Source: Escherichia coli (GTDB taxonomy: Bacteria > Pseudomonadota > Gammaproteobacteria > Enterobacterales > Enterobacteriaceae). From it: a stretch of 64,000 nucleotides of DNA. A program made the translations under genes and the position numbers. The notes under the pieces were generated by a model. The model was not told the DNA's origin and did no database searches. It saw only the letters and a list, made by a program, of their open reading frames with translations. The stretch is taken from assembly GCF_044324875.1 (NCBI RefSeq), contig NZ_CP172185.1. One strand, given 5' to 3'. Below are positions 1 to 15,859 of this stretch, piece by piece; the stretch's first letter is position 1; every line of letters begins with the position of its first letter.

Positions 1-654
1 ATTGAGAATTTGACGAAGTCATATCGCACGCCAACGGGGCGACACTATGTGTTTAAGGATTTAAACCTCGAAATTCCTTCAGGAAAAAGTGTTGCCTTTA
101 TTGGTCGTAATGGTGCGGGTAAATCAACGTTACTGAGAATGATTGGCGGCATTGACCGCCCCGACAGTGGAAAGATCATCACCAATAAAACGATATCATG
201 GCCAGTCGGCCTTGCAGGTGGATTTCAGGGAAGTTTAACCGGACGCGAAAACGTAAAATTTGTTGCGCGGTTATACGCGAAGCAAGAAGAGCTGAAAGAG
301 AAAATTGAGTTTGTCGAAGAATTTGCCGAACTCGGTAAGTACTTCGATATGCCGATTAAAACTTACTCATCTGGTATGCGATCGCGTTTAGGCTTTGGTT
401 TAAGCATGGCATTTAAGTTTGATTATTATATCGTCGATGAAGTAACCGCAGTCGGTGATGCCAGGTTTAAAGAAAAATGCGCTCAATTGTTTAAAGAAAG
501 GCATAAAGAATCTAGTTTTTTAATGGTTTCACATAGTTTGAATTCATTGAAAGAGTTTTGTGATGTGGCGATTGTGTTTAAAGACGATAATGCGGTTGGT
601 TTTTATGAGGATGTTCAGGAGGGAATAGAAGAGTATTATAGGATATATGCCTGA
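1..654 (+). CDS. kpsT: KpsT, capsule polysaccharide ABC exporter ATP-binding protein (5' end cut by window edge)
   Basis: ORF frame continues to base 1 (IENLTKSY...); Walker A GRNGAGKST; close resemblance to recalled group 2 capsule KpsT; sits upstream of region 2 and convergent with kpsS..kpsF. Confidence 0.9.
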   Translation: MENLTKSYRTPTGRHYVFKDLNLEIPSGKSVAFIGRNGAGKSTLLRMIGGIDRPDSGKIITNKTISWPVGLAGGFQGSLTGRENVKFVARLYAKQEELKEKIEFVEEFAELGKYFDMPIKTYSSGMRSRLGFGLSMAFKFDYYIVDEVTAVGDARFKEKCAQLFKERHKESSFLMVSHSLNSLKEFCDVAIVFKDDNAVGFYEDVQEGIEEYYRIYA

Positions 655-880
655 ATAGCCTGTTTGAATAATAATCCAGCCTGTGAATGTTAACACTAAA
701 TGATTCATGTTACATGATTAAAAATCATAGCGATAATATTTTTTAAATTTCTTGGTTTGTGTGCTGAATATTAGATTTCATTACACTATCAACCGTATGA
801 AAAAATTACTTTTCAAGAAAGTATTTATCAAGAAAGATATAAAATCTAACTTTCCAATTTATCTCAATAGGAAAATATAA

Positions 881-3800
881 ATGAATTTTTTATTCTTTTT
901 AGAGCCTTCTATAGAGTTGAATAATCCTCTCTTCAGATATGCTACTTTAAGAAACTCTCTTCTTCCTCAAATTAAAACATTAAGAAGAATGGGGCATGAT
1001 GTAGTTACATTATTGAGTGACTCGGTTGCACAAAAATGTATTGTAGATAATAAAGTAGAACAAATTGGAACAATTGCCGTAATTGATTCTATCGAATGGA
1101 TGAATGGAGAAGGGTATTTTCCTCGATCGCTGCGCCATCAATCTAGGAATTATTTCGATGGGGAACTATTGAATATAAAAAAAATATTGTTGAATTCTAT
1201 TGGGGACCTTTCTTATAAACCAGATGTAATTATAGTTTGGGAAACTCCAGCCTATTACTTAGAAGAGTTATTTCCAGAGGCAAAATGTATCTATCAAATG
1301 CCTGGGGTATTCTCAAGACCTCCATTTGCAAATTTGGTATCATTTGATGATAGATTGCTGGAAAGAAAAACAAAACCGGTAGATTATATTATTGATGATG
1401 GTGAGTTATCAGATTTTGAAAAATTAAGAGAAAAAGAGAATTCTTTTTTTTCCTCCATAAGCCCAACTAAAAAGAAGATAGAGGATATAAGGAAAAAATA
1501 TTCTAAAATAGTATTATTTCCATTGCAAATTGATAATTATTTCATGGTTTCATCGGTTCTGGGCGATGGGAAAACTCAGTTTGATGCATTGATATCTTGT
1601 TTGAAACTTTTACCTGGTGATATAGCATTAATTGTAACCAACTATATTTCTAGGGATATAAAAAGCGCCGTTTTGAGCCATGAGAATATTAAGTATTTAC
1701 GTAATAGATTTCCTAACTTTAAGTATATTGAGGAGTTTGACCTGATTCCTTGTGTTTCTCAATATTTAGTTCGTGAAGTAGATGGTGTAATTTCTATATC
1801 ATCTTCCTTGGGATATCAGGCCAGATATTGGGGCAAACCGCTATTAACTTTAGGCACTAGCCATATTCAAAACTTCGCCACCACAGATAATTTTGATGAG
1901 TTTATAGAGCAAATCTACACATCGATTGCTTACTTTAATGATAGTAATTTAATTGGTGAAATGAAATATAAGAATGTACCTCAGGACTTTTTATCTAGTG
2001 ACGAATATCCACAATGGCTAATAAATGCAATCACAAGTAAATATACGCATTCATGGTGCGATAATATTTCTAATGAGCTTGCCAAAAGAAAGCGAGAAAA
2101 AGCATGCCTTGACTCTCTTGTCCCATACATAAAAAAATATCATCCCCAAGATGATTATTTTTGTAAAGAGCTTTCAGCACAAATACAGCGTTACTCAATA
2201 ATATCTTTTGATATTTTTGATACCCTGCTTATGAGGCCCTTTAGGCATCCTACTGATTTATATGATTTTATAGAACCTCAAGTTAGGTTACTTACAAAAA
2301 TTCCTCATTTAAATTTCAAAAAAGAGCGAAAAAATGCTGAGAAAATTGCATTTGAAAATGCAATTAAGGCAGGGGTTGGTGAAATAACGATTGAGGAAAT
2401 TTATAAGGTTTTAGGAGGTGCTTTAAATATAAGTGCTCAAGTTCAGGAAAATATAATGCAACTTGAAATGCAAACTGAATATGATCTACTTTATCCAAGA
2501 AAAAGTGGATATAGAGCATATCTTGAGGCTAAACAAGCAGGAAAGAAGATAATTTTTATTTCTGATATGTATCTTGGGAAAAGTTTCTTATCCAAAATTC
2601 TGCATAAAAATGGCTATGAAGAATATGATAATTTATATGTATCCTCTGAACATCGAGTAAAAAAACATAGTGGTGAACTTTTTGACTATGTAATTAATGA
2701 TTTAGGCATAGAGCCGCAAACTATATTACACATTGGTGATAATGTCGAAGCTGATGTGAAAAAAGCAAAATCAAGGAATATTAAACCGTTTCATTTAAAG
2801 AAAGCATATGAAGAGTTTACAACATGTTCAGACTATCAAATGCTCTGGAGCAGAGATGAGAATAAACACTCCTTGGATTGGAAAATACTATTGTCAATAG
2901 CAGGCAATAATCTGCATGACAACCCTTATCTCCCATTCCGAAAAGGAACTATCTTTGGTGGATCTCCATTAAAGCTGGGCTATTATGGCCTGGGACCACT
3001 TTTATTAGGTTATGCAAAATGGTTGGTAGAATCAGCAATAAAGGATAAAGTCGAAAGGCTATATTTCCTATCAAGAGATGGAAAGATAATGAAACAAGCT
3101 TATGATATTGTAGCTAAGCTTTATCATAATGCTCCAGAATCTTATTATCTCCTATGTTCAAGAAGAGCTATAAATCTTGCAAAGGTAAAAACTTATAACG
3201 ATATAATTGATTTGGCAAATGTTGATTATGCGAATAATGTTAGTCTCTCACATTTACTTTTCAACAGGTTCGGTTTACAAATTGATACTATCGCAGATGA
3301 AGTATTAGAAAAACATGGGTTTGATAAACAGTCAAAATTAACGTCGAATGATGTTGATAAACTACAAGAACTGTTATTAGATGTGAAGGATGAGGTGTTA
3401 TCTATTGCAGAGAAAGAAAGGTGTTGTTATTTAGAATATCTTAATGAAATGAAGGTGTTCGATAAGGGAGAAATTTCTATCGTTGATATTGGCTATGCGG
3501 GAACAATGCAACAATCATTATATCAATTATCTTCCAATAGCAAAAAAATCGGTGGTTACTACTTAATAACTTTCAGGCCTGCGATTGATCGAGTTGTGAA
3601 TAATTTATTAGCTATAAAATCATATCTCGCTGAATTTATTGACAGGCATGATACATATCATCCTTTCTGCCGATATGTACCCCTTTATGAAACATTATTT
3701 AGTTGTTCTGATACAACATTTATCCGTATGACAAAGGACTTAAGTGGTACGCTCGTTCCTGTGTTTATGGAGAGTACTCCGGTAGAAAATACACGAAAAA

Positions 3801-4294
3801 CAATTGTTGAACATATACAAAAAGGTGCGGTAAATTATATTTCAGAAGTGGTAACCATATTAGGTGAGCATTTTAAACACCTTGATATAGAACCAAATAA
3901 AACACTTCGTGCATTAAATATATTTTTTTCCAATCCTCACCCAAGAGATGCAAAGATATTTTCAGGGGTGGTTTTTGAAGATGCTTATGGTGGAACTCAG
4001 CATAAAACAATTTTACCTGACATCAAAAACATCAATTCTACTTGCGTCTGGGAAACAGGTAGAAAAGTCTTAAGAAATAATCTAGTTAATGAACAGGAAA
4101 ATCAAAAAAATGGCCAAAAGGCTGATAAATATGAAAGTAATACTAAAACAACAAAGCAAAAAATAATATATTCTTTATTAGTAAAAACATTAGCCAAAAG
4201 GAAAAGAGAAAAATTCATCAAAAATCCTGAGCTTTTTTTTTATGATTCCAAAAAGACGATAGTCAAGAGTATTGGTAAATTATATTTATCATGA
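881..4294 (+). CDS. capsule region-2 multidomain protein (1137 aa): N-terminal KpsC/KpsS-like domain, central HAD-like domain, uncharacterised C-terminal half; putative serotype-specific polymerase
   Basis: AT-rich ORF between kpsT and kpsS; N-terminal segment with VLFPLQIDNYF resembles the LQV(Y/F)NDSQ region of KpsS/KpsC; HAD motif I FDIFDTLL and motif IV-like IGDNVEADV. Confidence 0.6.
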   Translation: MNFLFFLEPSIELNNPLFRYATLRNSLLPQIKTLRRMGHDVVTLLSDSVAQKCIVDNKVEQIGTIAVIDSIEWMNGEGYFPRSLRHQSRNYFDGELLNIKKILLNSIGDLSYKPDVIIVWETPAYYLEELFPEAKCIYQMPGVFSRPPFANLVSFDDRLLERKTKPVDYIIDDGELSDFEKLREKENSFFSSISPTKKKIEDIRKKYSKIVLFPLQIDNYFMVSSVLGDGKTQFDALISCLKLLPGDIALIVTNYISRDIKSAVLSHENIKYLRNRFPNFKYIEEFDLIPCVSQYLVREVDGVISISSSLGYQARYWGKPLLTLGTSHIQNFATTDNFDEFIEQIYTSIAYFNDSNLIGEMKYKNVPQDFLSSDEYPQWLINAITSKYTHSWCDNISNELAKRKREKACLDSLVPYIKKYHPQDDYFCKELSAQIQRYSIISFDIFDTLLMRPFRHPTDLYDFIEPQVRLLTKIPHLNFKKERKNAEKIAFENAIKAGVGEITIEEIYKVLGGALNISAQVQENIMQLEMQTEYDLLYPRKSGYRAYLEAKQAGKKIIFISDMYLGKSFLSKILHKNGYEEYDNLYVSSEHRVKKHSGELFDYVINDLGIEPQTILHIGDNVEADVKKAKSRNIKPFHLKKAYEEFTTCSDYQMLWSRDENKHSLDWKILLSIAGNNLHDNPYLPFRKGTIFGGSPLKLGYYGLGPLLLGYAKWLVESAIKDKVERLYFLSRDGKIMKQAYDIVAKLYHNAPESYYLLCSRRAINLAKVKTYNDIIDLANVDYANNVSLSHLLFNRFGLQIDTIADEVLEKHGFDKQSKLTSNDVDKLQELLLDVKDEVLSIAEKERCCYLEYLNEMKVFDKGEISIVDIGYAGTMQQSLYQLSSNSKKIGGYYLITFRPAIDRVVNNLLAIKSYLAEFIDRHDTYHPFCRYVPLYETLFSCSDTTFIRMTKDLSGTLVPVFMESTPVENTRKTIVEHIQKGAVNYISEVVTILGEHFKHLDIEPNKTLRALNIFFSNPHPRDAKIFSGVVFEDAYGGTQHKTILPDIKNINSTCVWETGRKVLRNNLVNEQENQKNGQKADKYESNTKTTKQKIIYSLLVKTLAKRKREKFIKNPELFFYDSKKTIVKSIGKLYLS

Positions 4295-4483
4295 ATATTA
4301 AGGGGGCGCATATGTATCCGAATTATATATATCATGATTATTTTTTTTAGTTGTTAGAAATAAATTCTTAGCATGGATGCTGTTATTCTTTTTTATATAA
4401 TAAACTTTAGATAATATGAATTGTTTATTGTCAAAAATAAGTATATTTTATTGGGTTAATATATATTTGTATGGTGCATCGGA

Positions 4484-5641
4484 ATGATTGAGTTTATTTG
4501 CTCTGAATTAAATAAAAACCCATATTTAGAAATAATTCCCAATCACAAGTCAAAAATGGTTTATATTGCTTTTTCATCGGTAGATATACCGAGAGGGGCA
4601 TTTATGTTTTGGAAAATAATCAATAGAATGGATGCCTCCAAGATTTTTATTAATGATGAACATAATGGGTGGTATGTTCATGGAATTCCTGGTGTAGGTG
4701 ATGTTAACAAAAGCATTGATTTTTTATTCAATATTTTAAATATGCTTAAAGCAGAAGAGGTAATATTGATAGGCCCCTCAATGGGGGGGTATGGTGCCAT
4801 GTTATATGGTGCTATTCTTAAAATGAAGATGCCATGGATACAATTTCGATGCCTTTCTTTTGGTGGTGAGTTTCATCTGTATATAAAGGAAGCAAGAAGT
4901 GGCAAGCTATCTAAAAAACCACGTAATCCATATTATGCTGATATAAGATGTTTAGTATCCTCATCTGAATTGGATATAGTTCAGGTTTATGGTGACGATG
5001 ATATCAATGATATTTATCAAGCCCATCTTGTTCATGGAATTAAAAATATTGATCTAATTTCTGTAAGAAATTCCCCGCATGCGGTTTCGACGTATTTAGG
5101 AAAGAAAATTGATTTAACAAAAGCAATTAAAAATTATGAATCCTATGGAAAGTTTGAGGTTGAATCTGCATCTAATGTCAGTCAATTTAAAGAGCATGGC
5201 GCTCTATTATATTTTGGTCATTTAATGATGCTTGATAATAATGCTAAAGAGGCAATTAAAAAATTAGAAAAAGCAATAACTATCATACCAGACCATGCTC
5301 TGACGCAGCATAAACTTGGACTTGCATTACTCATGCTGAAAAAAGAAAAAGAAGCACTTTTACACCAAGAATTAGCTATAAATCTAAATCCTGATCTGGC
5401 TCATGCACATTTTCATATTGCCATGCTATCAGAGATGAATGGCGATATTAAAAAGGCTGAGTATCATTACAAAGAGTGTATTAGGTCTGATGAACGTCAT
5501 ATTCGAGCATTGATTTCATTATCATTGTTATATGAAAAAGTAAAGGAGTATGAACTGGCTTTGGATTGTTCATATAAGGTTTTAGCGTATTCTGAAGGTA
5601 ATAAAATGGCCTTGGATATAGTACGAAGAATTACAAAGTAA
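4484..5641 (+). CDS. capsule region-2 protein (385 aa) with alpha/beta-hydrolase-like GxSxG motif and C-terminal TPR-like repeats; function unknown
   Basis: AT-rich ORF co-oriented with region-2 gene 1; GPSMGGYG motif; repeated helical A/L/K-rich C-terminal blocks typical of TPR. Confidence 0.55.
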   Translation: MIEFICSELNKNPYLEIIPNHKSKMVYIAFSSVDIPRGAFMFWKIINRMDASKIFINDEHNGWYVHGIPGVGDVNKSIDFLFNILNMLKAEEVILIGPSMGGYGAMLYGAILKMKMPWIQFRCLSFGGEFHLYIKEARSGKLSKKPRNPYYADIRCLVSSSELDIVQVYGDDDINDIYQAHLVHGIKNIDLISVRNSPHAVSTYLGKKIDLTKAIKNYESYGKFEVESASNVSQFKEHGALLYFGHLMMLDNNAKEAIKKLEKAITIIPDHALTQHKLGLALLMLKKEKEALLHQELAINLNPDLAHAHFHIAMLSEMNGDIKKAEYHYKECIRSDERHIRALISLSLLYEKVKEYELALDCSYKVLAYSEGNKMALDIVRRITK

Positions 5642-5731
5642 AATAATCTGTGTCTCAGTGTAGGTATGTGGCGGTAATGATTTAACTAATAGTTATTGAA
5701 TGTTTCAGTTATACTGAATAAAATTATTATA

Positions 5732-6982
5732 TTAATGGTTTTTAATTTGAGTAGTGTGCATTGTTTGTGTAATGAAAAGATTATTACCATTATTAATATT
5801 ATATTTAAAACACCCATAAAAAACCCAATTAACCTGTGTCTTCACCAATAAATACCCACGAAACTTCTTAAACAGTTTCATATTCGGTTTAAAATCGGCC
5901 TGCCAGAACTGGTGCAAATGCCCTTGATACGTCAAGCCCTTGATGTCGTACAGGGCATTGCCCATCACTTTGAGTGGTTTGTTATGAATCAGTGCAGAGA
6001 TCCCCGCCGTACTGTTAATCGTCACCACCGCTTTAGCATGGCGTAATAGTTCCGGCATCGGGAGATCGTGCACATAAATGACGCGCTCACCTAAGCCATA
6101 TTCCTTACTCAACCGCTTAATTAATGGTCGATAGAGTCTGTGACCACGATCCATCGGATGATGTTTGATCACCAAATAACTTTCTTTCGGCGCTTTACGT
6201 GAAAATGAGTACATGACTTCATTAATATAGTCACGCACATCGTTATAATTGCTGTGGTTACGAATCTGGCTATCGTTATATACCTGCAAAACGGCAAGAT
6301 AATAACGCTGGTCCAACTCGTTCATTAACCTCGGTAATACCTTACGCTGTGTTACCTTGTAAAGTTGCTTGCGCCAGTATGCACGAACCCAGCAACGAGC
6401 TTCATACCACGGGGAAAATGATTTATGGTGGCGGTAGCGAGGGAACTCATGACGGTAATGCCAGCCCATCAGGTAATACCACATCGCATGACCTATACGT
6501 TTCATCGTTGAAGGTTTTAAGTTCTCAACGTGCGGCGTAGGCATATCTGGTAACTTACGATAAAAATCCGGATCGCGCGGTAGCGATGAATATGCGTTCA
6601 CTCCGCCTTCTTCAACGGTAATAAATTGCGGGCGTAAATATCCTTCCTCAAATGCCAGAAAGCGGATCCCTTTCGACTTTGCCCAGCGTTTTGCTTCTTT
6701 GTGCAATGGGCGGCAGTCACCAAAGCAGAGGATGGTATCAAAGTCATATTGCCGGTGGAGATCCCGTAACCATCCGGGGAACTCTTTCGGCGTTTGGTAG
6801 TAAGCCAGGTATTGTCGATGGCGGCAGTAAAAACGATCCCCACCGTTGAATACAACATTCACAGCGTTACGTCCTAATGACTCTAACCATTCGGCGACGT
6901 CATTGAAAAAAGGTCCCATCGGCCCCTGCAATAGCAGATATTTTTTACCGGATAATAAAACGGTTAGTGCATTACCTTGCAT
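5732..6982 (-). CDS. kpsS: KpsS, capsule biosynthesis beta-Kdo transferase (region 1)
   Basis: 416-aa ORF MQGNALTVLLSGKKYLLLQGPMGPFF...; conserved YLAVLQVYNDSQ motif; last gene of the kpsFEDUCS block. Confidence 0.9.
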   Translation of the reverse strand: MQGNALTVLLSGKKYLLLQGPMGPFFNDVAEWLESLGRNAVNVVFNGGDRFYCRHRQYLAYYQTPKEFPGWLRDLHRQYDFDTILCFGDCRPLHKEAKRWAKSKGIRFLAFEEGYLRPQFITVEEGGVNAYSSLPRDPDFYRKLPDMPTPHVENLKPSTMKRIGHAMWYYLMGWHYRHEFPRYRHHKSFSPWYEARCWVRAYWRKQLYKVTQRKVLPRLMNELDQRYYLAVLQVYNDSQIRNHSNYNDVRDYINEVMYSFSRKAPKESYLVIKHHPMDRGHRLYRPLIKRLSKEYGLGERVIYVHDLPMPELLRHAKAVVTINSTAGISALIHNKPLKVMGNALYDIKGLTYQGHLHQFWQADFKPNMKLFKKFRGYLLVKTQVNWVFYGCFKYNINNGNNLFITQTMHTTQIKNH

Positions 6983-7016
6983 AAATAATTTACGTAATAG
7001 TCAACTATGAAATTGT

Positions 7017-9044
7017 TTAGCCAAATCTGACCTTGCAGAACATAATTAATTTGCGGTAATAGCGTATGACTCGCCCCGCTTTTTTTCGGGTAATAAACAT
7101 CGGCTTGCGCGGCGTCTTGATTAAATATTCCGCAGCTTCTTCTACCGTAATAGGTTGTAGCCGTGTTGGGTGGATATAGGTTGGATAAACAATCAACGCC
7201 TGATAGATCAAATCTGCTAACGTTAATTTTTGCTCGCGGCGCGGGCAGTGATGTTCATCAACGGTTAAACCCCAACCGGCATAGAAGGGCAGGCCGTAAC
7301 AATGTACGTGCTTGCCATGTAATAACGCTTCAAACCCGGACAATGATGTCATGGTGTGCACTTCATCTGCGCGCTGAATGCATTGAATAATATCGGCGTC
7401 CAGTGCCTGATAATCAGCGAGTTCAGCAGTCAGTTCTGCCGGAATATCGCCCTTGCGATTCCCCACCAGTACATCCGGGTGCGGTTTATAAACAATGTAG
7501 GCGTGCGGATTGCGCTCGCGTACTGTGCGTAATAACTCAAGGTTGCTCTTAATCGAGACAGTGCCTGTTTTAATAGAGGCATCGTCCTCTACCTGACCCG
7601 GCACCAGGATAACTTTTTTATCTTTGGCTTCGGCTGGTAGAGAGAAATCGGCTCCCAGGTTGTACTTACTCAGTTTGCTTTCAACCAGTCGCTGGCGTAA
7701 TTTTTCAGCTCGCATCTGCTGCGCCAGCGTTAACTGGCTGTGATTAAGCAGGACTTCCAGGTCGCTGGGGCGCGTGGCGTCATAGTAGATCCCGCGTTTA
7801 TCCAGTACCAACGATAGCGGCGGCAGCAGGTCAGAGCCAAGTCCGGATGAACGCAGAAAACCATCTTCCATTCGCCATAACGGCAGTGATTTTTGTTGCG
7901 CTTCGGCTAGCCATTGCTGTTCTCCCTTTACACCCCATACCACGCAAGCCGTCGCCGCAGTACAACGGCGTGAATAACTCAGTCTGTTTGTTGCGGTACG
8001 CAAGAAAGGTTTCAGGATTGCCGACTTCCACAGCGTTAAGCCTGGCGACCATAAATAGCCATTACGCTGTTGCTGATGGTTGCGCTGTAATTGCAGCCAT
8101 TGCAGTACGGTAAACAGATCGCTTGCGGCCCCCGTGAGCGGGTCGATATAGCGACAGTAACGCAGGTATGCAGCGGCAAAAAGTTCTTCCAGCGTGGCAG
8201 AACCGCGTCGGGCAGATAACAAAGCGGACTGCGGATGGCGATCGTCGGTTAAGCCCCAGCCTGCATACCAGGGCTGGCCGAAACATGTTACTGGTTTTCC
8301 TGCCAGCAAGGCTTCAAAGCCGTATTGGGATGTCACGACGTAAACCCGGGAAACGTGTCGCAACAGCGACTGCGGGCTGACATTCTCGGCAATCAAACGT
8401 ACTCGTTGCGTGGCGCGCAGATCAGCGAAATAACCTGTTTTCTTTCCTTCCAGGACATCCGGATGCACCTTCACCCAAATTTCGGCTTGAGGATTTTCCG
8501 CCATCGCGGCTTCCAGCATGGCAGCAAACTCATGCGGGCCAGCATTGCCATACGTCACTGACATATCATTAAATGTCTGATCGACAACCAGAACGATGTC
8601 TGAACGTTCTGACTCATCAGCCACAAACGCAGGTGCTAGGTTATATTTCGACAAATCCCCGGTCACGATGGTGTGCATCGCTTCTCTGGCCAGGCTTATC
8701 AGAGCTGTATTTCCGGCTTTATCCTGTACCAGTTTCTCCAGTGCTGAAGGCTTGCTGGCATCGTAGTAAATGCCACAATCATCCACCACCAGAGAAAGCG
8801 GCGGCTCGCCATTGACGCCAAGATCCAGCGAACGCACAAATCCATCTTCCAGACGAATGACGGGTTTTCCCGCTGCTTTGGCGATGGCGACTGGTTTCGC
8901 CGCGCTGGGACGATGTCCCCACACGGCGATAGCATCAACTTCTTGCGGAACAGGGCGCAGCAGAGAAAGTTTCTGGCACGGTTGCGCCAGAAATTTCTCC
9001 AGATGCGGAATACGCCAGATGCCAGGCGAGTAAATGCCAATCAT
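7017..9044 (-). CDS. kpsC: KpsC, capsule biosynthesis dual-module beta-Kdo transferase
   Basis: 675-aa ORF with two repeated modules ([14 protein letters not shown] / [14 protein letters not shown]); 4-bp overlap with kpsU. Confidence 0.92.
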
Positions 9045-9781
9045 GCGTTTTCAGCCAGTTCCTGTGCCATCAGGGCGCGCACTTTTTCCAGGCATGCTGG
9101 GGTGTCGACGCCCGGACCGGTTGCGGCAACCTCAAATGTGCGGATGTTGATCCCCGCGCTCATCAACCGCAGCTGCTCCAGTGATTCTGCCTGCTCCTGC
9201 ATGGACTCCGGTAACTGGCTGTAGTTTTGCAGCACATCGCGACGATAAGCGTAAATACCAACGTGTTTCAGGTAGCGCGCTTTTTCAGCATTACGCGGAT
9301 ACGGAATAGGCGAACGGCTGAAATAAAGCGCATCCTGGCGGGTATTTACCACCACTTTTACCGTGCTTGGCTCGGTCGCTTCTTCGGCAGAAATCGCGTG
9401 GCATAGCGTTGCCACTGGCAACGCGGGGTCATCACGCATTCCTTGTAACAGCGTTTCTACATCCCGCGGGCGAATCATTGGTTCGTCGCCCTGCAGGTTA
9501 ATGTAGATATCTGCCTCGACTTTATGCATCACCTCGACCAGCCGATCGGTGCCGGATTCATGATCGTTGCGCGTCATGATGGCTTTCCCGCCAAATGCCT
9601 GCACGGCCTGTTCAACACGCGGATCGTCTGTTGCCACCCAAACTTCCGCAACGCCCGCCACCTGTAACGCACGCTCGTAAACATGCTGGATCATCGGTTT
9701 GCCGACAATATCGAGTAGCGGCTTACCCGGCAGACGCGATGAGCCATAACGAGCCGGGATGACAATAACAGCTTTGCTCAT
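9041..9781 (-). CDS. kpsU: KpsU, CMP-Kdo synthetase (KdsB paralog)
   Basis: 246-aa [25 protein letters not shown]...; cytidylyltransferase signature; position in region 1. Confidence 0.92.
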
Positions 9782-9790
9782 TTCAACTCC

Positions 9791-11470
9791 TTACAAAGAC
9801 AGAATCACTTTTGCACCCACCGCCAGCTGATAGAGGATGGTGGAAATACCACGGGTAACTTCAATATTTTTCGATTCATATTTCGGCAGAACCATAATCT
9901 CATCGCCCGGCTTGAGTGAATCCACATCTTCCGCGTTGACCGCAGCACCGTTCTGACGAATGACGATAATTCTGGCGTTACCCGATTTTTGCGTCAGGCC
10001 ACCACATTTCTCGATGTAATCCTCGGTGGTCATTCCCTTCTGCCAGCTCACCGCGTTCGGGAACAGCACCTCGCCGTGAACCATAACCAGCGACGTTTTC
10101 TCCGGAATATTGATGACGTCGCCATCTTCCAGCAGAACAGAATCAATATTGGACTCGTTGAGGATCACTTCACCTTTCGGAACCACGGTGCGCGCTTTCG
10201 CCACAAAGCGGCTGATCAGTTGCGCTTCCTGCATTCGCAGGCTGGCTTCTTCTTTGGTGGAGGACTGGGCGGAAAGAGATGCTTCCTCCAGCTTTTGCAG
10301 CGAGAGATTCAGCATCTCTTTCTGACGCTGGGCCACTGATGGGCGATAAAGCTGAACCGCGTTCATCTGCGACATGCTGTTCGGACGGACTTTTTCCAGA
10401 ACCGCACGCATGGTAGAGCCATAAGGCAGCACCATGGCGTGTTCACCGGAGTGCGCGCCTTCAACCCGCACCTGAATGGTGCCTGCATAGCGGTCAGTGC
10501 TGACGATTAAGGTATCGCCATTTTGCAACATACGGCCTGGCGCAGAACTGATCGGATAGTATTCGCTACGTTTTTGCAGTCCCTGTTTACGCATAATCGT
10601 AATGTGAGTCGCGCCAGGCTTAGGGCGCGCCCAGCTCAACGCTTCCGTTACGGGAATGCTGCTTTCGCGGAACTCAAAGTCGTAGCTGTTAAAGACATCG
10701 CCCTGAACGCTGAAAGTATGCTGACGCGGCCCGACGATGATGGTGTCACCATCGGCGAACTGCGAAAGCCCCAGTTTACCGTTCAGCAGGAAGTCGTACA
10801 GGTTGACGTTGGAGCGCACGCGGTTACCGCGCTTGACCACAATATCAACGTAACTTCCGCGCTCTGGATCAACGCCGCCAGCCTTGATCAGATAATTGAG
10901 TAACGAATCAGACGTCACACCGCCATACAGACCAGGATTACGCACAAATCCGGTCACGTACACTTTTACTGGCTGCGCCTGTAATAAGGAGGCGTAGACG
11001 TTGACGTTGGACTGGTACACTTCCTTCACTTTTGATGTAACCAGAGTGTTCAACTGACTATTGCTAACCCCGGCAACTTTCACCGGACCAACGTTTGGCA
11101 GAAAAATATTACCTTTGGGATCAATCTGTAATGCACCATCAAAGGTGAACGCACCCCACAAGCGAACCTGAATGCTATCACCCGGATTCAGAATATAGTC
11201 AGGGTTGAATCCTACCGTCGCACCGCTATCCGCGCTGGTGCCGTTGAAAAGTTGAGCACCAAACATGCGGCTCATGACCACCGGCGGTGCGGGCGGCGGG
11301 GTATTGTCGAAGCCGCTCATGTTTTGCGTATCCGACTGTTGCCCGTTCAGAATACCGGTAAGCGGCGCGGCTCCTGTCAGGTTTGGGTCAGCGTTAATAT
11401 CAATGGCCGCGCTGGCCTGCGCCGCGTGACAGGCGGCAATCAGTAAAATTGATTTAAATAATTTCATCAC
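9791..11470 (-). CDS. kpsD: KpsD, capsule polysaccharide export protein
   Basis: 559-aa ORF with N-terminal signal peptide MMKLFKSILLIAACHAAQASA; position between kpsU and kpsE. Confidence 0.9.
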   Translation of the reverse strand: MMKLFKSILLIAACHAAQASAAIDINADPNLTGAAPLTGILNGQQSDTQNMSGFDNTPPPAPPVVMSRMFGAQLFNGTSADSGATVGFNPDYILNPGDSIQVRLWGAFTFDGALQIDPKGNIFLPNVGPVKVAGVSNSQLNTLVTSKVKEVYQSNVNVYASLLQAQPVKVYVTGFVRNPGLYGGVTSDSLLNYLIKAGGVDPERGSYVDIVVKRGNRVRSNVNLYDFLLNGKLGLSQFADGDTIIVGPRQHTFSVQGDVFNSYDFEFRESSIPVTEALSWARPKPGATHITIMRKQGLQKRSEYYPISSAPGRMLQNGDTLIVSTDRYAGTIQVRVEGAHSGEHAMVLPYGSTMRAVLEKVRPNSMSQMNAVQLYRPSVAQRQKEMLNLSLQKLEEASLSAQSSTKEEASLRMQEAQLISRFVAKARTVVPKGEVILNESNIDSVLLEDGDVINIPEKTSLVMVHGEVLFPNAVSWQKGMTTEDYIEKCGGLTQKSGNARIIVIRQNGAAVNAEDVDSLKPGDEIMVLPKYESKNIEVTRGISTILYQLAVGAKVILSL

Positions 11471-11490
11471 AAACTCATTCAGCGACAGCG

Positions 11491-12639
11491 TTAGTCTCGG
11501 TGATCTTCAATAACAGCCAGCAACAGTTTCAGGGTGCCGAACAGCAGGCAGCACACCAGTAACCAGCAGGCGATCAAATAAGGGATATTTGGAAAAGACG
11601 ATTCCTGCGGCAACTGTGGCGAACTGATCACTGACAGCACCTTGAGCTTACGAGCCGCTTCTACACGGGTCTTTTCAATGGAGGTCAGGGTCAGTTTGTA
11701 CAGCTCGGTGTTGAACTCTACTTTTGATTTGATTTCTTCAAAATCCACCGCCATACGGTTTAGCTTGTCACCCTGCGGCGCTGTGATTTTGCTTTTTTCT
11801 TCGTCAATTTGTGCCTGCAATGACTGAATCGCATTACGCGCACTCACAACTTGCGGGGCGTCCTCACGCAGATACGTCAGCAAGTTCCGCAGGTCCGCTT
11901 CCATCTGGATCTTCTGGCCCATCAGCGTATTCACTAACGTGCTCGCCGCCTGTGCCTGTGCCTGTGGATCCAGAACGTTGTTGTTGTCTTGATAAGAGAG
12001 CAATTCCGCTTTGCTGGCGTCCAGACGCTGGCGTGCTTTTTCCATCTCCGTTTCTGCAAAGGCAAGCTGGTCACGCGCGATGCGATGTGACATCTCATTG
12101 ATAAAGCGCTCTGACTCTTTCAGCACGGTCTGGTTAAACTTAAGCGCAAACTCCGGGCTAAAGCCCTGCGTCTGAATATTCAGTAATCCGGTTTTATCGT
12201 CATACGAGACGTTGATACGGTCCTTGTAGTACTTCAGGAAGCCTTCTGCAGTTTCATCCTTGCTAAGATGATTAAGAAAATCGAGCCCGCTGTGGCTAAA
12301 CGCTTCACGAAAATTTAGTTGCTTATCCAGCGCCGCCAGCATATCCGGCGAGTTGATGTACTCTTTCAGATACAACGCATCTTCTGCGGAACTGGGGTTA
12401 GAGGCACCCAGAAGCAGACCAAAATTCAGGCTGCCGCTGTTTAAATCATCCGAGCGTTTAATGGCGACTTTCGACTCGCTCATATAGCGAGGCTGGCTGA
12501 AGATAGCCAGATAGATCAGCAGCACCGCCATCGGTGTCAGAATGATGATTTTCGCCAGGTGTTTTTGGATATCTGCCAGTGAGATGGCAGACAGACGAGC
12601 ACGCATCCAGGATACGGCAGACTTCACTTTTATCAACAT
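11491..12639 (-). CDS. kpsE: KpsE, capsule polysaccharide export inner-membrane protein
   Basis: 382-aa ORF with N-terminal and C-terminal hydrophobic segments and central coiled-coil region; region 1 position. Confidence 0.9.
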   Translation of the reverse strand: MLIKVKSAVSWMRARLSAISLADIQKHLAKIIILTPMAVLLIYLAIFSQPRYMSESKVAIKRSDDLNSGSLNFGLLLGASNPSSAEDALYLKEYINSPDMLAALDKQLNFREAFSHSGLDFLNHLSKDETAEGFLKYYKDRINVSYDDKTGLLNIQTQGFSPEFALKFNQTVLKESERFINEMSHRIARDQLAFAETEMEKARQRLDASKAELLSYQDNNNVLDPQAQAQAASTLVNTLMGQKIQMEADLRNLLTYLREDAPQVVSARNAIQSLQAQIDEEKSKITAPQGDKLNRMAVDFEEIKSKVEFNTELYKLTLTSIEKTRVEAARKLKVLSVISSPQLPQESSFPNIPYLIACWLLVCCLLFGTLKLLLAVIEDHRD

Positions 12640-12710
12640 GTAACGATTATCAAAGTTTCAGTGGGGCGCAAACTCAATGAGAGACTAACCTCTCGAACCC
12701 CGTTGCTTAA

Positions 12711-13694
12711 TTAGTCGAAAATGCGCACAAGGCCAGTGACTTTATTTGCCTTGTTGGTCACCAATAATGTTGAGACGCGGTGCTTTTGCATTTTTTCTTC
12801 CGCTTCAATGATCATGGTGTCTTCCGGTAGCGTCAGCGGTTCACGTGTCATCATCTGCGCAGCCGTGGCGGATGTCAGAGAATCCTCTTTTTCCATAAAG
12901 CGACGCAGGTCACCGTCGGTGATAATGCCCGCTAGCCCACCTTCTGCGTCTTCTACCATCACCATTCCCTGGCATCCGCTGGTGATACGTTGAATCACGG
13001 TTTTAAATGACGCATCCAGCTGTACCGCAGGAACATCATGCTGCATGACATCAGCAACGCGGGTCAGCAGGCGACGACCTAATGAACCGCCCGGGTGATA
13101 GCGCGCAAAATCATTCGGCATAAATTTGCGTTGGTGGATCATGGCAATCGCCAGCGCATCGCCGATCGCCATCGTCAGCGTGGTAGACGTTGTTGGTGCA
13201 AGATTATTCGGGCAGGTTTCATTCGCCATGTGGAGTTCCAGCACGGCATCAGCATTTTTCGCCAGCGTGGAATTTCCATTATTGGTAATGGCGATAATTC
13301 GGTTGCCGAAATTTTTCAGTGAAGGAACTAGCTTGAGGATTTCATCCGTTTCACCGCTGGCAGAAATAAGGATCAGAAGATCGTAAGGCGTAATCATGCC
13401 CAGATCGCCATGGAAAGCTTCTGCAGGATGAATAAAGAAACTAGGCGTACCCGTAGAGGCCAGCGTCGCTGACATTTTACGACCGACATGCCCTGATTTA
13501 CCCATTCCCGAAAGAATAACGTGCCCTTTACAGTTCATTATCAAATTAAGGACACGCTGGTACTGCCCGGAATCCAGTTGTTTAGACAAGTTTTGTAATG
13601 CTGCGCCTTGTTCTGCCAGAGTCTGGCGAACAGAGGTAATTAGATATGGATCGATAGTACTGCTCTGGTCATCAGGTAAATGTCTTTCAGACAT
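12711..13694 (-). CDS. kpsF: KpsF, arabinose-5-phosphate isomerase (SIS + CBS domains)
   Basis: ORF track gives 12711..13730; I place the start at the ATG of MSERHL (13692-13694) because an AAAGGAG Shine-Dalgarno lies 6 nt upstream; SIS motif GMGKSGHVG. Confidence 0.88.
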   Translation of the reverse strand: MSERHLPDDQSSTIDPYLITSVRQTLAEQGAALQNLSKQLDSGQYQRVLNLIMNCKGHVILSGMGKSGHVGRKMSATLASTGTPSFFIHPAEAFHGDLGMITPYDLLILISASGETDEILKLVPSLKNFGNRIIAITNNGNSTLAKNADAVLELHMANETCPNNLAPTTSTTLTMAIGDALAIAMIHQRKFMPNDFARYHPGGSLGRRLLTRVADVMQHDVPAVQLDASFKTVIQRITSGCQGMVMVEDAEGGLAGIITDGDLRRFMEKEDSLTSATAAQMMTREPLTLPEDTMIIEAEEKMQKHRVSTLLVTNKANKVTGLVRIFD

Positions 13695-14300
13695 ATCAGC
13701 TCCTTTGCACGGAAATAATGCCACAGTCACAACAAACCCGAACCCACTATAATTTATTTATGCTAAATCAATGGGTTGTAAAAAATTTTTAATGAATATA
13801 AAACCATGGTCAGTCCATGCTTATATGCAGGACTTATCACCTTCTTATTAAGTCGCAATGTCTCATGGAGGTGCGAAGATGCTGCAATATTACAGGCGAG
13901 AAGGGGAACCAAATTTTGCCCACCTATTTAACACACCCCTACATTATGAACAAGGAATTTAGGATTTTTATCATTTATTAAAATGTTTTCTACTTGACTA
14001 TTAAGAACAAAAACAATTTATCAATTGATTATTTCCTTGTAAAAAAAGAACGTATGACTATGTTATTAATAAATAAAACACGCAAATAATGGTGATGTTG
14101 TTTTGTGATTAACTATTTAAGTGCGGCATAATAAACAGGTTGACAATTTCTATGTAAAGAAGAGGAAAATAATAAAATTTTAGCGGTGACTATTGAATGA
14201 TATGATAGTTGTGGTGTTGATTATTTCTGGTAATGAATGCGGAATTAAATCTGGCCGGATTGTATTTTTGCTATATCTATTTTTCAGGAGATTATTATTA
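13695..14300 (-). promoter_or_regulatory. AT-rich kps region-1 upstream/promoter region
   Basis: long AT-rich ORF-free tract immediately upstream of kpsF; promoter elements not individually resolved. Confidence 0.35.
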
Positions 14301-15016: not shown

Positions 15017-15859
15017 TCAGGCTGAGAGCACAGAAAGAAAGTGCTTGGCTATTATATCGTTAATTCTGTCAATCAGTTCCAGCCTTTTGAAAGTGATGTG
15101 TGCAGATCCCTTCTTAAAATATTTAATGATGAACATCTCGTCTTCATAGCGCTCTTTACCCTGAACGGACTGGATGTGACCATCCAGACGAATAGTGATG
15201 TTTTCCCGGTTGTCGGGGATCGGTTTGCCGCTGAGCAGATGCAACATTCTTTCCAGGTCAGCCAGGCGATCTGCCTGCATTCCACTGATAAGATGAAATC
15301 CCCACCGGTCCCATCTCACCAGATTGTTGATAATGATTTTACTTCCAAATTTACAGGGAGAGTTGGTTTTATAATTCCAGCTCAGTTCCCTGAAGACGTT
15401 AATCACTCCCCGCTTAAACACCTCATCCTTGTTCTGGTGCACTTGTTCAAATGTGCTCAGAATGTTCGCTTCACTGATTTCCGGAAAATTATCATATTCC
15501 AGTGACCTGTACCATGTATCACGTGCCTGTGCATCCATTAAGGAAAGCATCCCGGAACGCTGCATCAGGTTACGCCAGATTTCGCGGTCAAGATTCCGGG
15601 TAATGGCTTTCATTGCTGTTTCTGGTTTCTCCATCAGCCAGCAGCCACAGCGAAAATTCTGTTTCATCGCCCAGTCCGGGGCGGCTTTACCGCCAATACT
15701 TTCCGTCAGTGCTGAGATTTCTGTCAGTTGCCGGATAAGCGTGTCGATTTGCAGCAGTGTACTCTTTCGTACAGCCAGGATGTGTCTGATACTTGTGGAA
15801 CAGATAACGGCTGTATGTCCGTTGACCGCGTTCGGGTGGGGGATTGTGATATATGACAT
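15017..15859 (-). CDS. hypothetical island protein (280 aa), tentatively DUF4942-like, downstream of cbtA module
   Basis: clean ORF, co-oriented with the CP4-like module; family assignment from memory only. Confidence 0.5.
   Translation of the reverse strand: MSYITIPHPNAVNGHTAVICSTSIRHILAVRKSTLLQIDTLIRQLTEISALTESIGGKAAPDWAMKQNFRCGCWLMEKPETAMKAITRNLDREIWRNLMQRSGMLSLMDAQARDTWYRSLEYDNFPEISEANILSTFEQVHQNKDEVFKRGVINVFRELSWNYKTNSPCKFGSKIIINNLVRWDRWGFHLISGMQADRLADLERMLHLLSGKPIPDNRENITIRLDGHIQSVQGKERYEDEMFIIKYFKKGSAHITFKRLELIDRINDIIAKHFLSVLSA

Follow-up and report, generated by a model that had tools for sequence, protein, structure and literature searches.

Region 2 of the Escherichia coli K16 capsule locus: a predicted three-module polymerase with an unusual Kdo-transferase-like domain, and a candidate O-acetyltransferase

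The DNA described here is a 64-kb stretch of Escherichia coli sequence (the window, in what follows), and its positions 881–5641 are region 2 of a K16 group 2 capsule locus. The region consists of two genes lying between kpsT and kpsS, open reading frame (ORF) A, encoding 1137 amino acid residues (aa), and ORF B, encoding 385. The best overall explanation, to which we give a probability of about 80%, is that ORF A is the K16 polymerase, with three catalytic modules and a basic tail, and that ORF B is an O-acetyltransferase of the CsaC type. [quoted passage not shown]

881–4294, forward strand: ORF A, predicted K16 capsule polymerase; K16_8 of the kTYPr catalogue; RefSeq WP_021564636.1, 'HAD-IA family hydrolase'
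881–2080, forward strand: ORF A aa 1–400, GT-B Kdo-transferase-like domain with a GT99-like fold
2186–2830, forward strand: ORF A aa 436–650, HAD-type phosphoribosyl phosphatase, similar to CrpP of Bcs3
2831–4000, forward strand: ORF A aa about 651–1040, PRPP-dependent glycan phosphoribosyltransferase, similar to CriT of Bcs3
4001–4291, forward strand: ORF A aa 1041–1137, basic C-terminal tail (22 lysines and arginines versus 9 aspartates and glutamates)
4484–5641, forward strand: ORF B, alpha/beta-hydrolase plus TPR protein, candidate K16 O-acetyltransferase; K16_7 from Met41; RefSeq WP_024234648.1
4484–5158, forward strand: ORF B aa 1–225, alpha/beta-hydrolase domain with a G-P-S99-M-G-G elbow (nt 4778–4780), D171, D173, D176 and H199 (nt 5078–5080)
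5189–5638, forward strand: ORF B aa about 236–385, four to five TPR repeats

The identity of the locus is established by comparison with kTYPr, a 2026 catalogue of transporter-dependent capsules, in which the K16 cluster comprises K16_8 (1137 aa, with TIGR01549 at 526–631) and K16_7 (345 aa, alpha/beta-hydrolase plus TPR) (PMC13171606). Residues 41–385 of ORF B have the md5 digest ef04b04ecd70257e5c4273d4d37fd893, which is that printed for K16_7, and ORF A differs by a single residue (K827R) from the copy in NZ_CM144236.1, also of 1137 aa, whose digest (aec83e01...) is that of K16_8; the region is therefore region 2 of the K16 locus. An NCBIfam scan places TIGR01549 in ORF A at exactly 526–631, the same span as in kTYPr. 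The catalogue defines K16 by the essential kps genes (kpsE, kpsD, kpsC, kpsS, kpsM and kpsT) together with K16_7 and K16_8; the window contains the last two, part of kpsT, and kpsS, kpsC, kpsD and kpsE, as well as kpsU and kpsF, and kpsM lies upstream of base 1, outside the window, and is present in identical genomes. The same 5 kb occurs at an identity of at least 99% in 14 of 5426 complete E. coli genomes, where RefSeq names the products 'HAD-IA family hydrolase' and 'tetratricopeptide repeat protein'. We note that the strain label of NZ_CM144236.1, 'O17_K12a', suggests K12, but the genome carries the K16 region 2 and exactly K16_8; the label thus appears either not to describe the capsule locus or to have some other meaning. 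The K12 polymer contains rhamnose, and the K12 cluster has a GT99 protein.

The K16 repeat is reported as ->2)-beta-Ribf-(1->3)-beta-Ribf-(1->5)-alpha-Kdop-(2->, where Ribf is ribofuranose and Kdop the pyranose form of Kdo (structure quoted in PMC5070880); the Rib-Rib-Kdo repeat was confirmed by MALDI mass spectrometry (PMC13171606), and K16 is among the few capsules reported with alpha-Kdop (PMC5070880, PMC7387560). An earlier note on this DNA, made from the sequence alone, had read it as a two-gene region 2 of a group 2 kps locus that is neither neu nor kfi, and as consistent with a Kdo-containing K antigen built by a single multi-enzyme polymerase. Both ORFs exist where it placed them and the motifs that it quoted are present, and comparison with typed K-antigen loci leads to K16, whose polymer contains Kdo, rather than to a region 2 for a polymer lacking it; a single protein is the predicted maker.

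The HAD domain of ORF A is significant in its own right (Pfam PF00702, E 1.3e-8; TIGR01549, 43.6 bits against a cut-off of 23.3 bits), with motif I as D443-x-D445-T, S561, and motif IV as G-D619-N-x-x-x-D. The signature that had looked complete by eye (FDIFDT at aa 443, GDNVEAD at aa 619) is thus that of a genuine HAD domain. In a phmmer search against PDB, ORF A residues 436–1037 match residues 33–629 of the 648-residue 7SHG chain (E 2.3e-17), and residues 392–771 match residues 332–719 of Bcs3 (E 2.8e-17). Enzymes of this type consist of a HAD phosphatase (CrpP/PRP) fused to a PRPP-dependent phosphoribosyltransferase (CriT/gPRT), with ribose-5-phosphate transferred from PRPP and then dephosphorylated (PMC10299916, PMC11231755, PMC12887879). 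The homology shows the HAD domain and the following residues to form one PRPP-dependent ribofuranosyltransferase module, as judged from the sequence. The roughly 500 residues that the earlier note could not place correspond to the phosphoribosyltransferase (7SHG, E 2e-17), which contains a conserved VDIGYAGT motif at aa 868. From the characterised homologues we infer that PRPP is the donor and that ORF A removes the 5-phosphate. A role for the HAD domain as a sugar-precursor phosphatase, acting on Kdo-8-phosphate or Neu5Ac-9-phosphate, was considered and rejected, the best matches being phosphatase modules fused to ribosyltransferases. The basic tail can be aligned with the C-terminus of KrkA, the polymerase of K13, and is probably a membrane or complex-association region, because this role has been proposed for the C-termini of KrkA (PMC12887879 Fig. 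S3) and Bcs3 (PMC10299916).

The N-terminal domain is more divergent. Direct sequence searches with it gave nothing significant, its match to Capsule_synth (PF05159) having an E of 0.03–0.17. About 80 full-length homologues of ORF A (26–68% identity) were collected, from Enterobacterales, Pseudomonas, Comamonas, Chromobacterium, Campylobacterales and other groups; 21 N-terminal domains were aligned, and conservation was counted per residue over 81 homologues. Six of the 21 match Capsule_synth at E<=1e-3, and comparison by hhalign of the ORF A family with the window's own KpsC-N, KpsC-C and KpsS gives a probability of 90.6% (E 1.3e-6), and with KrkA, in local mode, 79%. The predicted structure of the domain (predicted local distance difference test, pLDDT, 93.2) is closest to the GT99 domain of WbbB (5fa0; score 22.9, 318 residues aligned), followed by KrkA (9yfx; 15.5) and KpsC (6mgd, 14.0; 6mgb, 13.3), with 11.3 for the best generic GT-B fold; the modified GT-B fold of WbbB, KpsC and KrkA is also that of ORF A. 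The domain belongs to the KpsC/KpsS/WbbB beta-Kdo-transferase fold superfamily, with WbbB as the nearest solved fold, in line with the kTYPr label 'GT99-like' for the K16 domain (PMC13171606). Significant sequence similarity to a founding member, as CAZy uses it, was not found, and the relationship is seen by profile-profile methods only. The resemblance of this segment to KpsS and KpsC proposed in the earlier note thus holds at the level of the superfamily, whereas ORF A's own match to Capsule_synth is not significant.

The retaining Kdo transferases of GT99 (WbbB), GT107 (KpsC/KpsS) and GT140 (KrkA) share a QxxxD motif, in which the Gln binds the Kdo carboxylate and the Asp is the nucleophile, a (K/R)xHP motif that binds cytidine monophosphate (CMP), and a Ser-Ser phosphate site (PMC12887879). 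In place of QxxxD, ORF A has Q216-I-D218-N-Y220 (nt 1526–1540), within PLQIDNYF at aa 214. In both profile alignments, to KpsC/KpsS and to KrkA, Gln216 falls at the motif Gln and Tyr220 at the Asp; the stretch LQIDNYF, which had been likened to LQVYNDSQ, does therefore align exactly at QxxxD, but with the catalytic Asp lost. Position 220 is never Asp or Glu (Tyr in 76 of the 81 homologues, His in 3, Gln and Ala in 1 each), and Asp218 is conserved in 72, with Ser in 4, Glu in 3, and Phe and Asn in 1 each. The family-wide pattern is P-L-Q-(I/V)-D-(N/G)-Y-F, and this placing of an Asp and a Tyr two residues apart may recall the acid/Tyr nucleophile pair of retaining sialidases. The (K/R)xHP site aligns to T253-N-Y255-I (T253 to Y255 at nt 1637–1645) against KpsC/KpsS, or to S257-R-D259-I against KrkA, and His-Pro is not conserved in the family under either alignment; Tyr255 is conserved. 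E121 (nt 1241–1243), R146, Q216, T253, S307 and S308 are invariant in the family, and E121 (81 of 81) is the sole strictly invariant carboxylate of the domain. Its spacing from R146, 25 residues from the W-E motif, equals that between E102 (Y-E motif) and R127 of KrkA, although in the hhalign alignment the two glutamates are offset by one residue; ORF A lacks the Glu of the WbbB/KpsC type ('EDGF'). The Ser-Ser phosphate motif is kept, S307-S308-S309-L-G-Y-Q313-A aligning with SISSSVVHEA of KrkA and TSQYGFEA of KpsC. The domain would thus combine a retaining-enzyme fold with the lack of the retaining-enzyme nucleophile, a combination that appears to be new.

Among the closest known systems is the characterised prototype, KrkA of K13, K20 and K23 (sequence from the NCTC9022 genome, WP_001336789; PDB 9YFX–9YFZ, with 9YFZ the ternary complex), whose Kdo-transferase and ribosyltransferase activities were shown in 2026 and whose N-terminal module founded GT140 (PMC12887879). 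KrkA and ORF A share the order Kdo transferase, HAD phosphatase, PRPP ribosyltransferase and basic tail, and the position in region 2 directly after kpsT; they are 29% identical (E 1e-90) over 873 aligned positions, which run from the GT domain's SISSS motif as far as the C-terminus. However, BLASTP finds no similarity for ORF A residues 1–297, and in ORF A QIDNY220 stands in the place of Q189xxxD193, while the HP of KrkA's SRH227P is missing. A covalent Kdo adduct of KrkA has been trapped with a D193C variant. Architecturally, then, ORF A is a polymerase of the KrkA type, with a Kdo-transferase domain that by sequence is of a different lineage. The K13 polymer is a Rib-beta-Kdo disaccharide, whereas K16 is reported as Rib-Rib-alpha-Kdo, and the partner gene in K13 encodes a CatB/hexapeptide acetyltransferase rather than an alpha/beta-hydrolase plus TPR protein. 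WbbB (GT99; 5FA0, and 8CSB with donor) is 12% identical to ORF A, and its profile-to-sequence match (E about 1) covers the Ser-Ser motif only; its Asp232-type nucleophile, its HP motif and the 'EDG' base region of the WbbB/KpsC type are not conserved in ORF A, and WbbB terminates an O-antigen chain whereas ORF A is predicted to polymerise a capsule. KpsC and KpsS (GT107, PF05159) share with ORF A the scaffold Q...(K/T)x(H/Y)...(T/S)S-x-G-x-(E/Q)A, with D to Y at the nucleophile, H to Y at HP, and E to Q in the GFEA motif of ORF A; their product is the conserved poly-Kdo linker rather than the polymer of the serotype.

The ribosyltransferase half has its characterised relatives in Bcs3 of Haemophilus influenzae type b (PDB 8A0C; PMC10299916) and in 7SHG of Thermobacillus composti, both of which have a homologous CrpP-like HAD domain and CriT-like PRPP transferase. 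Bcs3, like ORF A, has an extra N-terminal transferase and a C-terminal membrane or complex region, but its N-terminal module is a TagF-like ribitol-phosphate transferase where that of ORF A is Kdo-transferase-like, and ORF A showed no SH3b domain; 7SHG is without a third module. Within E. coli, in the kTYPr neighbour comparisons that we looked at, K16_8 is only about 28–30% identical to the polymerases K131_7 and K107_10. K107 has a pair like that of K16, with K107_10 (1169 aa, HAD) and K107_9 (329 aa, alpha/beta-hydrolase plus TPR), which are 28% and 25% identical to the K16 polymerase and hydrolase-TPR protein respectively. There is also a second E. coli polymerase cluster (1158 aa) that is 54% identical to ORF A and has the same QVDNYF motif.

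The AlphaFold2 model of ORF B (pLDDT 93.7) has an alpha/beta-hydrolase fold, and its best structural match among alpha/beta hydrolases is the capsule O-acetyltransferase CsaC (SacC/MynC) of Neisseria meningitidis serogroup A (PDB 6YUO; PMC7501274), in keeping with the suggestion in the earlier note that the second gene might encode a modifying acyltransferase. The GxSxG and TPR features from which that suggestion came are present, as GPS99MG and four TPR repeats at about aa 240–370. A GxSxGG elbow with Ser, Asp and His is the signature of capsule alpha/beta-hydrolase O-acetyltransferases (PMC7387560, PMC7501274), for which CssE and K15 ORF5 are further comparators; ORF B has the elbow and a Ser-Asp-His triad, with the Asp among D171, D173 and D176. 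In 13 homologues (34–62% identity) the GPS99MG elbow, D176 and H199 are invariant, and D171 and D173 nearly so. ORF B is 15% identical to CsaC, from which the C-terminal TPR domain of about 150 residues is absent. A PDB sequence search with ORF B matched only TPR proteins, and there are weak matches to Asp2, PAE and XcbB/CpsF (E 0.006–0.06). Because residues 1–40 (nt 4484–4603; a Y-x-V-F-S-S-V-D-I strand) are conserved in 9 of the 13 homologues, translation likely starts at Met1, giving 385 aa as in RefSeq, and not at the Met41 of kTYPr (345 aa).

Genomic context adds to the case for ORF B. Homologues of ORF A and ORF B occur in one kps-like cluster of Pseudomonas sp. NPDC089428, which also contains kdsA and a kdsB fusion. 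The gene following the polymerase encodes a hexapeptide-repeat acetyltransferase in Chimaeribacter arupi (11579–12235 of that locus) and a CatB-type acetyltransferase in E. coli K13 NCTC9022 (4856–5593 of that locus), which from the sequences looks like a non-homologous replacement. These loci support ORF B as the likely K16 O-acetyltransferase, and we consider that it is most likely an acetyl-CoA-dependent enzyme of the CsaC type. In the Pseudomonas locus the kdsA gene and a kdsB-HAD fusion (probably KdsB-KdsC) lie between the polymerase and the hydrolase-TPR gene, at 11590–13739, and judging from their sequences the pair would provide the capsule with its own source of CMP-Kdo.

In the mechanism that we propose, the N-terminal GT-B domain of ORF A would use CMP-Kdo to place Kdo on the terminal ribose, the C-terminal module would add ribose-5-phosphate from PRPP to the chain end, and the central HAD module would remove the 5-phosphate and so allow chain extension. 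Since the repeat is Ribf-Ribf-Kdo and one ribosyltransferase module is encoded, this module most likely works two times in each repeat, with Kdo as the acceptor in one case and Ribf in the other. ORF B would acetylate through a Ser99-Asp-His199 triad with an acetyl-enzyme intermediate, and its TPR domain would probably serve for docking, either to the polymerase or export complex or to the anionic polymer as it is being made.

Several findings weigh against this explanation as a whole. Searches of PDB by phmmer and hmmsearch with the N-terminal domain reached an E of only about 1–2 to WbbB and KpsC and left KrkA unmatched, and the lack of the Asp nucleophile and of the HP motif means that the chemistry is not simply copied from KrkA or WbbB. 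No significant match in sequence connects ORF B with CsaC or CssE, their relationship being seen in fold and motifs only; a literature search gave no confirmation of O-acetylation of the K16 polymer; and among alpha/beta hydrolases esterases are far commoner than transferases. As regards the chemistry, the nature of the transferase for the alpha-Kdo of K16 (to which one paper adds K74 and the other K6 and K15), and its relation to the retaining beta-Kdo enzymes, have both been flagged as unresolved (PMC7387560, PMC13171606). Tyr in place of Asp, the loss of HP and the reported alpha-Kdo together suggest that catalysis may be inverting or in some other way non-canonical. One refinement of the polymerase assignment, which we hold tentatively and at distinctly less than even odds, is that the N-terminal domain is an inverting Kdo transferase with the WbbB/KpsC/KrkA fold that has lost the Asp, the acceptor hydroxyl attacking CMP-beta-Kdo directly to give alpha-Kdo. 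The placing of Tyr220 at the Asp position in two independent profile alignments, the exclusion of Asp and Glu from that position in 81 homologues, the unconserved His-Pro, the status of E121 as the only strictly invariant carboxylate and the alpha-Kdop reported for K16 (PMC5070880, PMC7387560) would all fit, but E121 appears from its 25-residue spacing to be equivalent to the general base E102 of the retaining KrkA, suggesting that the acceptor approaches as in retaining enzymes, and the residue equivalences rest on sequence-profile alignment rather than superposition. Moreover, the alpha assignment dates from 1990, with no re-examination by nuclear magnetic resonance since, and D218, conserved in 72 of the 81, could be a shifted nucleophile. 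This leads to the alternative of a retaining beta-Kdo transferase with another nucleophile, Asp218 or Tyr220, in which case the published alpha-Kdo assignment would be wrong; we regard it as a serious possibility, if one falling somewhat short of an even chance. It would account for the retention of Q216, E121, R146 and the Ser-Ser phosphate motif and for the conservation of D218 and Y220, each in about 90% of homologues, and a Tyr is the nucleophile of retaining sialidases, which act on a related 2-keto-3-deoxy acid sugar. Against it, of the six most divergent full-length homologues shown, four have Ser or Phe in place of D218, five members of the family carry His, Gln or Ala instead of Y220, and we know of no Tyr-nucleophile glycosyltransferase with the WbbB/KpsC/KrkA fold. 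Other old structures of Kdo-containing K antigens have on re-analysis proved not to match the reference strain, for example K6 (PMC13171606), which speaks for such an error here. A broader proposal, for which our confidence is likewise below one half, is that the K16 Kdo-transferase domain and its approximately 80 proteobacterial homologues form a distinct lineage of the WbbB/KpsC/KrkA fold, in which the Asp and the His of HP are replaced by Tyr and which would act by direct inversion or through a non-carboxylate nucleophile. The domain would then be the capsule alpha-Kdo transferase that has long been sought, and a candidate for a new GT family, in a protein whose one PRPP module adds both ribofuranose linkages.

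The remaining doubts concern the second ribose and ORF B. kTYPr also recognises a single ribofuranosyltransferase (RibfT) domain in the K16 cluster, and its authors put forward two explanations, a RibfT that is bifunctional or an enzyme whose gene lies in another part of the genome (PMC13171606). The latter, a ribofuranosyltransferase from outside the kps locus that adds the second ribose, is thus one of two published options, and it gains from other Rib-Rib-Kdo types, which appear to have two RibfT-like proteins, as inferred from the cross-similarities of K74_7, K74_8 and K109. We nevertheless think it unlikely: tblastn found no second ribosyltransferase copy in the 64-kb window, and other genera have homologous regions, in compact kps-like clusters, of two genes or one. 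In addition, region 2 of group 2 loci normally encodes all of the serotype-specific transferases. For ORF B, the competing view is that it is not an O-acetyltransferase but an esterase or de-O-acetylase, or else a largely structural TPR adaptor, either connecting the polymerase to KpsMT-KpsED export or controlling chain length. The missing sequence match to CsaC and CssE counts in its favour, and the TPR domain of the capsule polymerase Cps3D is reportedly needed for elongation. An improbable account is nonetheless how we see it, since the triad and GxSxGG elbow, invariant in homologues at 34–62% identity, argue for catalysis, the best match to the hydrolase fold is a capsule O-acetyltransferase, a canonical acetyltransferase takes the same slot in a related locus, and a cytoplasmic esterase would have no obvious role in a two-gene biosynthetic region.

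K16 is a minor capsule type of extraintestinal pathogenic E. coli, and the locus, with its domain-level annotation, is already catalogued (kTYPr, 2026; PMC13171606); it is no discovery, and ORF A is an uncharacterised relative of a known architecture. The value of the region is mechanistic, in the question of alpha-Kdo synthesis, for which E121, D218, Y220 and Y255 are the candidate key residues of the K16 Kdo-transferase domain; if the domain were retaining, the anomeric assignment of 1990 would be wrong. What remains novel is the loss of the nucleophile and of HP in a GT99-like domain, the likely use of one ribosyltransferase module for two riboses, and the hydrolase-TPR candidate acetyltransferase. 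With ORF B there is a concrete candidate for capsule O-acetyltransferases of a second structural class, bearing a TPR docking domain, and enzymatic glycoconjugate synthesis could make use of a single protein that builds a trisaccharide repeat out of two donors.

The neighbouring capsule genes, which border region 2 on both sides, are as follows.

10–654, forward strand: kpsT, 3' part, the ATPase of the region 3 ATP-binding cassette transporter and left border of region 2 (from its translation and the annotation in identical genomes)
5732–13730, reverse strand: region 1, kpsS-kpsC-kpsU-kpsD-kpsE-kpsF, right border of region 2
5732–6982, reverse strand: kpsS
7017–9044, reverse strand: kpsC, followed by kpsU/kdsB, kpsD, kpsE and kpsF, all on the reverse strand

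Region 2 is AT-rich, with a GC content of 0.30–0.33 across 500–5500 (approximately 31%) versus about 0.50–0.54 in kpsC–kpsE; such low GC is the usual mark of a horizontally acquired region 2 in group 2 kps loci. The GC content falls to 0.39 at 5501–6500, toward the 3' end of kpsS, which suggests a recombination border within that gene. KpsS scores 396 bits against the NCBIfam equivalog cut-off of 600 bits, and KpsC matches no KpsC-specific NCBIfam model, yet is nearly identical to the E. coli KpsC of PDB 6MGC. A scan for promoters and terminators across 500–6000 gave nothing above chance, and kpsT, ORF A and ORF B are not separated by terminators.

Past kpsF, a supposed collinearity of the window with strain 300033 proved wrong, the sequences diverging after about 13.78 kb. 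In strain 300033 kpsF is followed by pheV tRNA-Phe and then yqgA; ARAGORN found no tRNA gene in the whole 64-kb window. Part of the window at about 13780–24000 matches the island adjoining kps in NCTC9022, where the annotation shows DUF4942, CbtA/YeeU toxin-antitoxin, antirestriction and DUF932 genes, and a reverse-strand ORF of the window at 15017–15859 is equal in length to the DUF4942 gene of NCTC9022.

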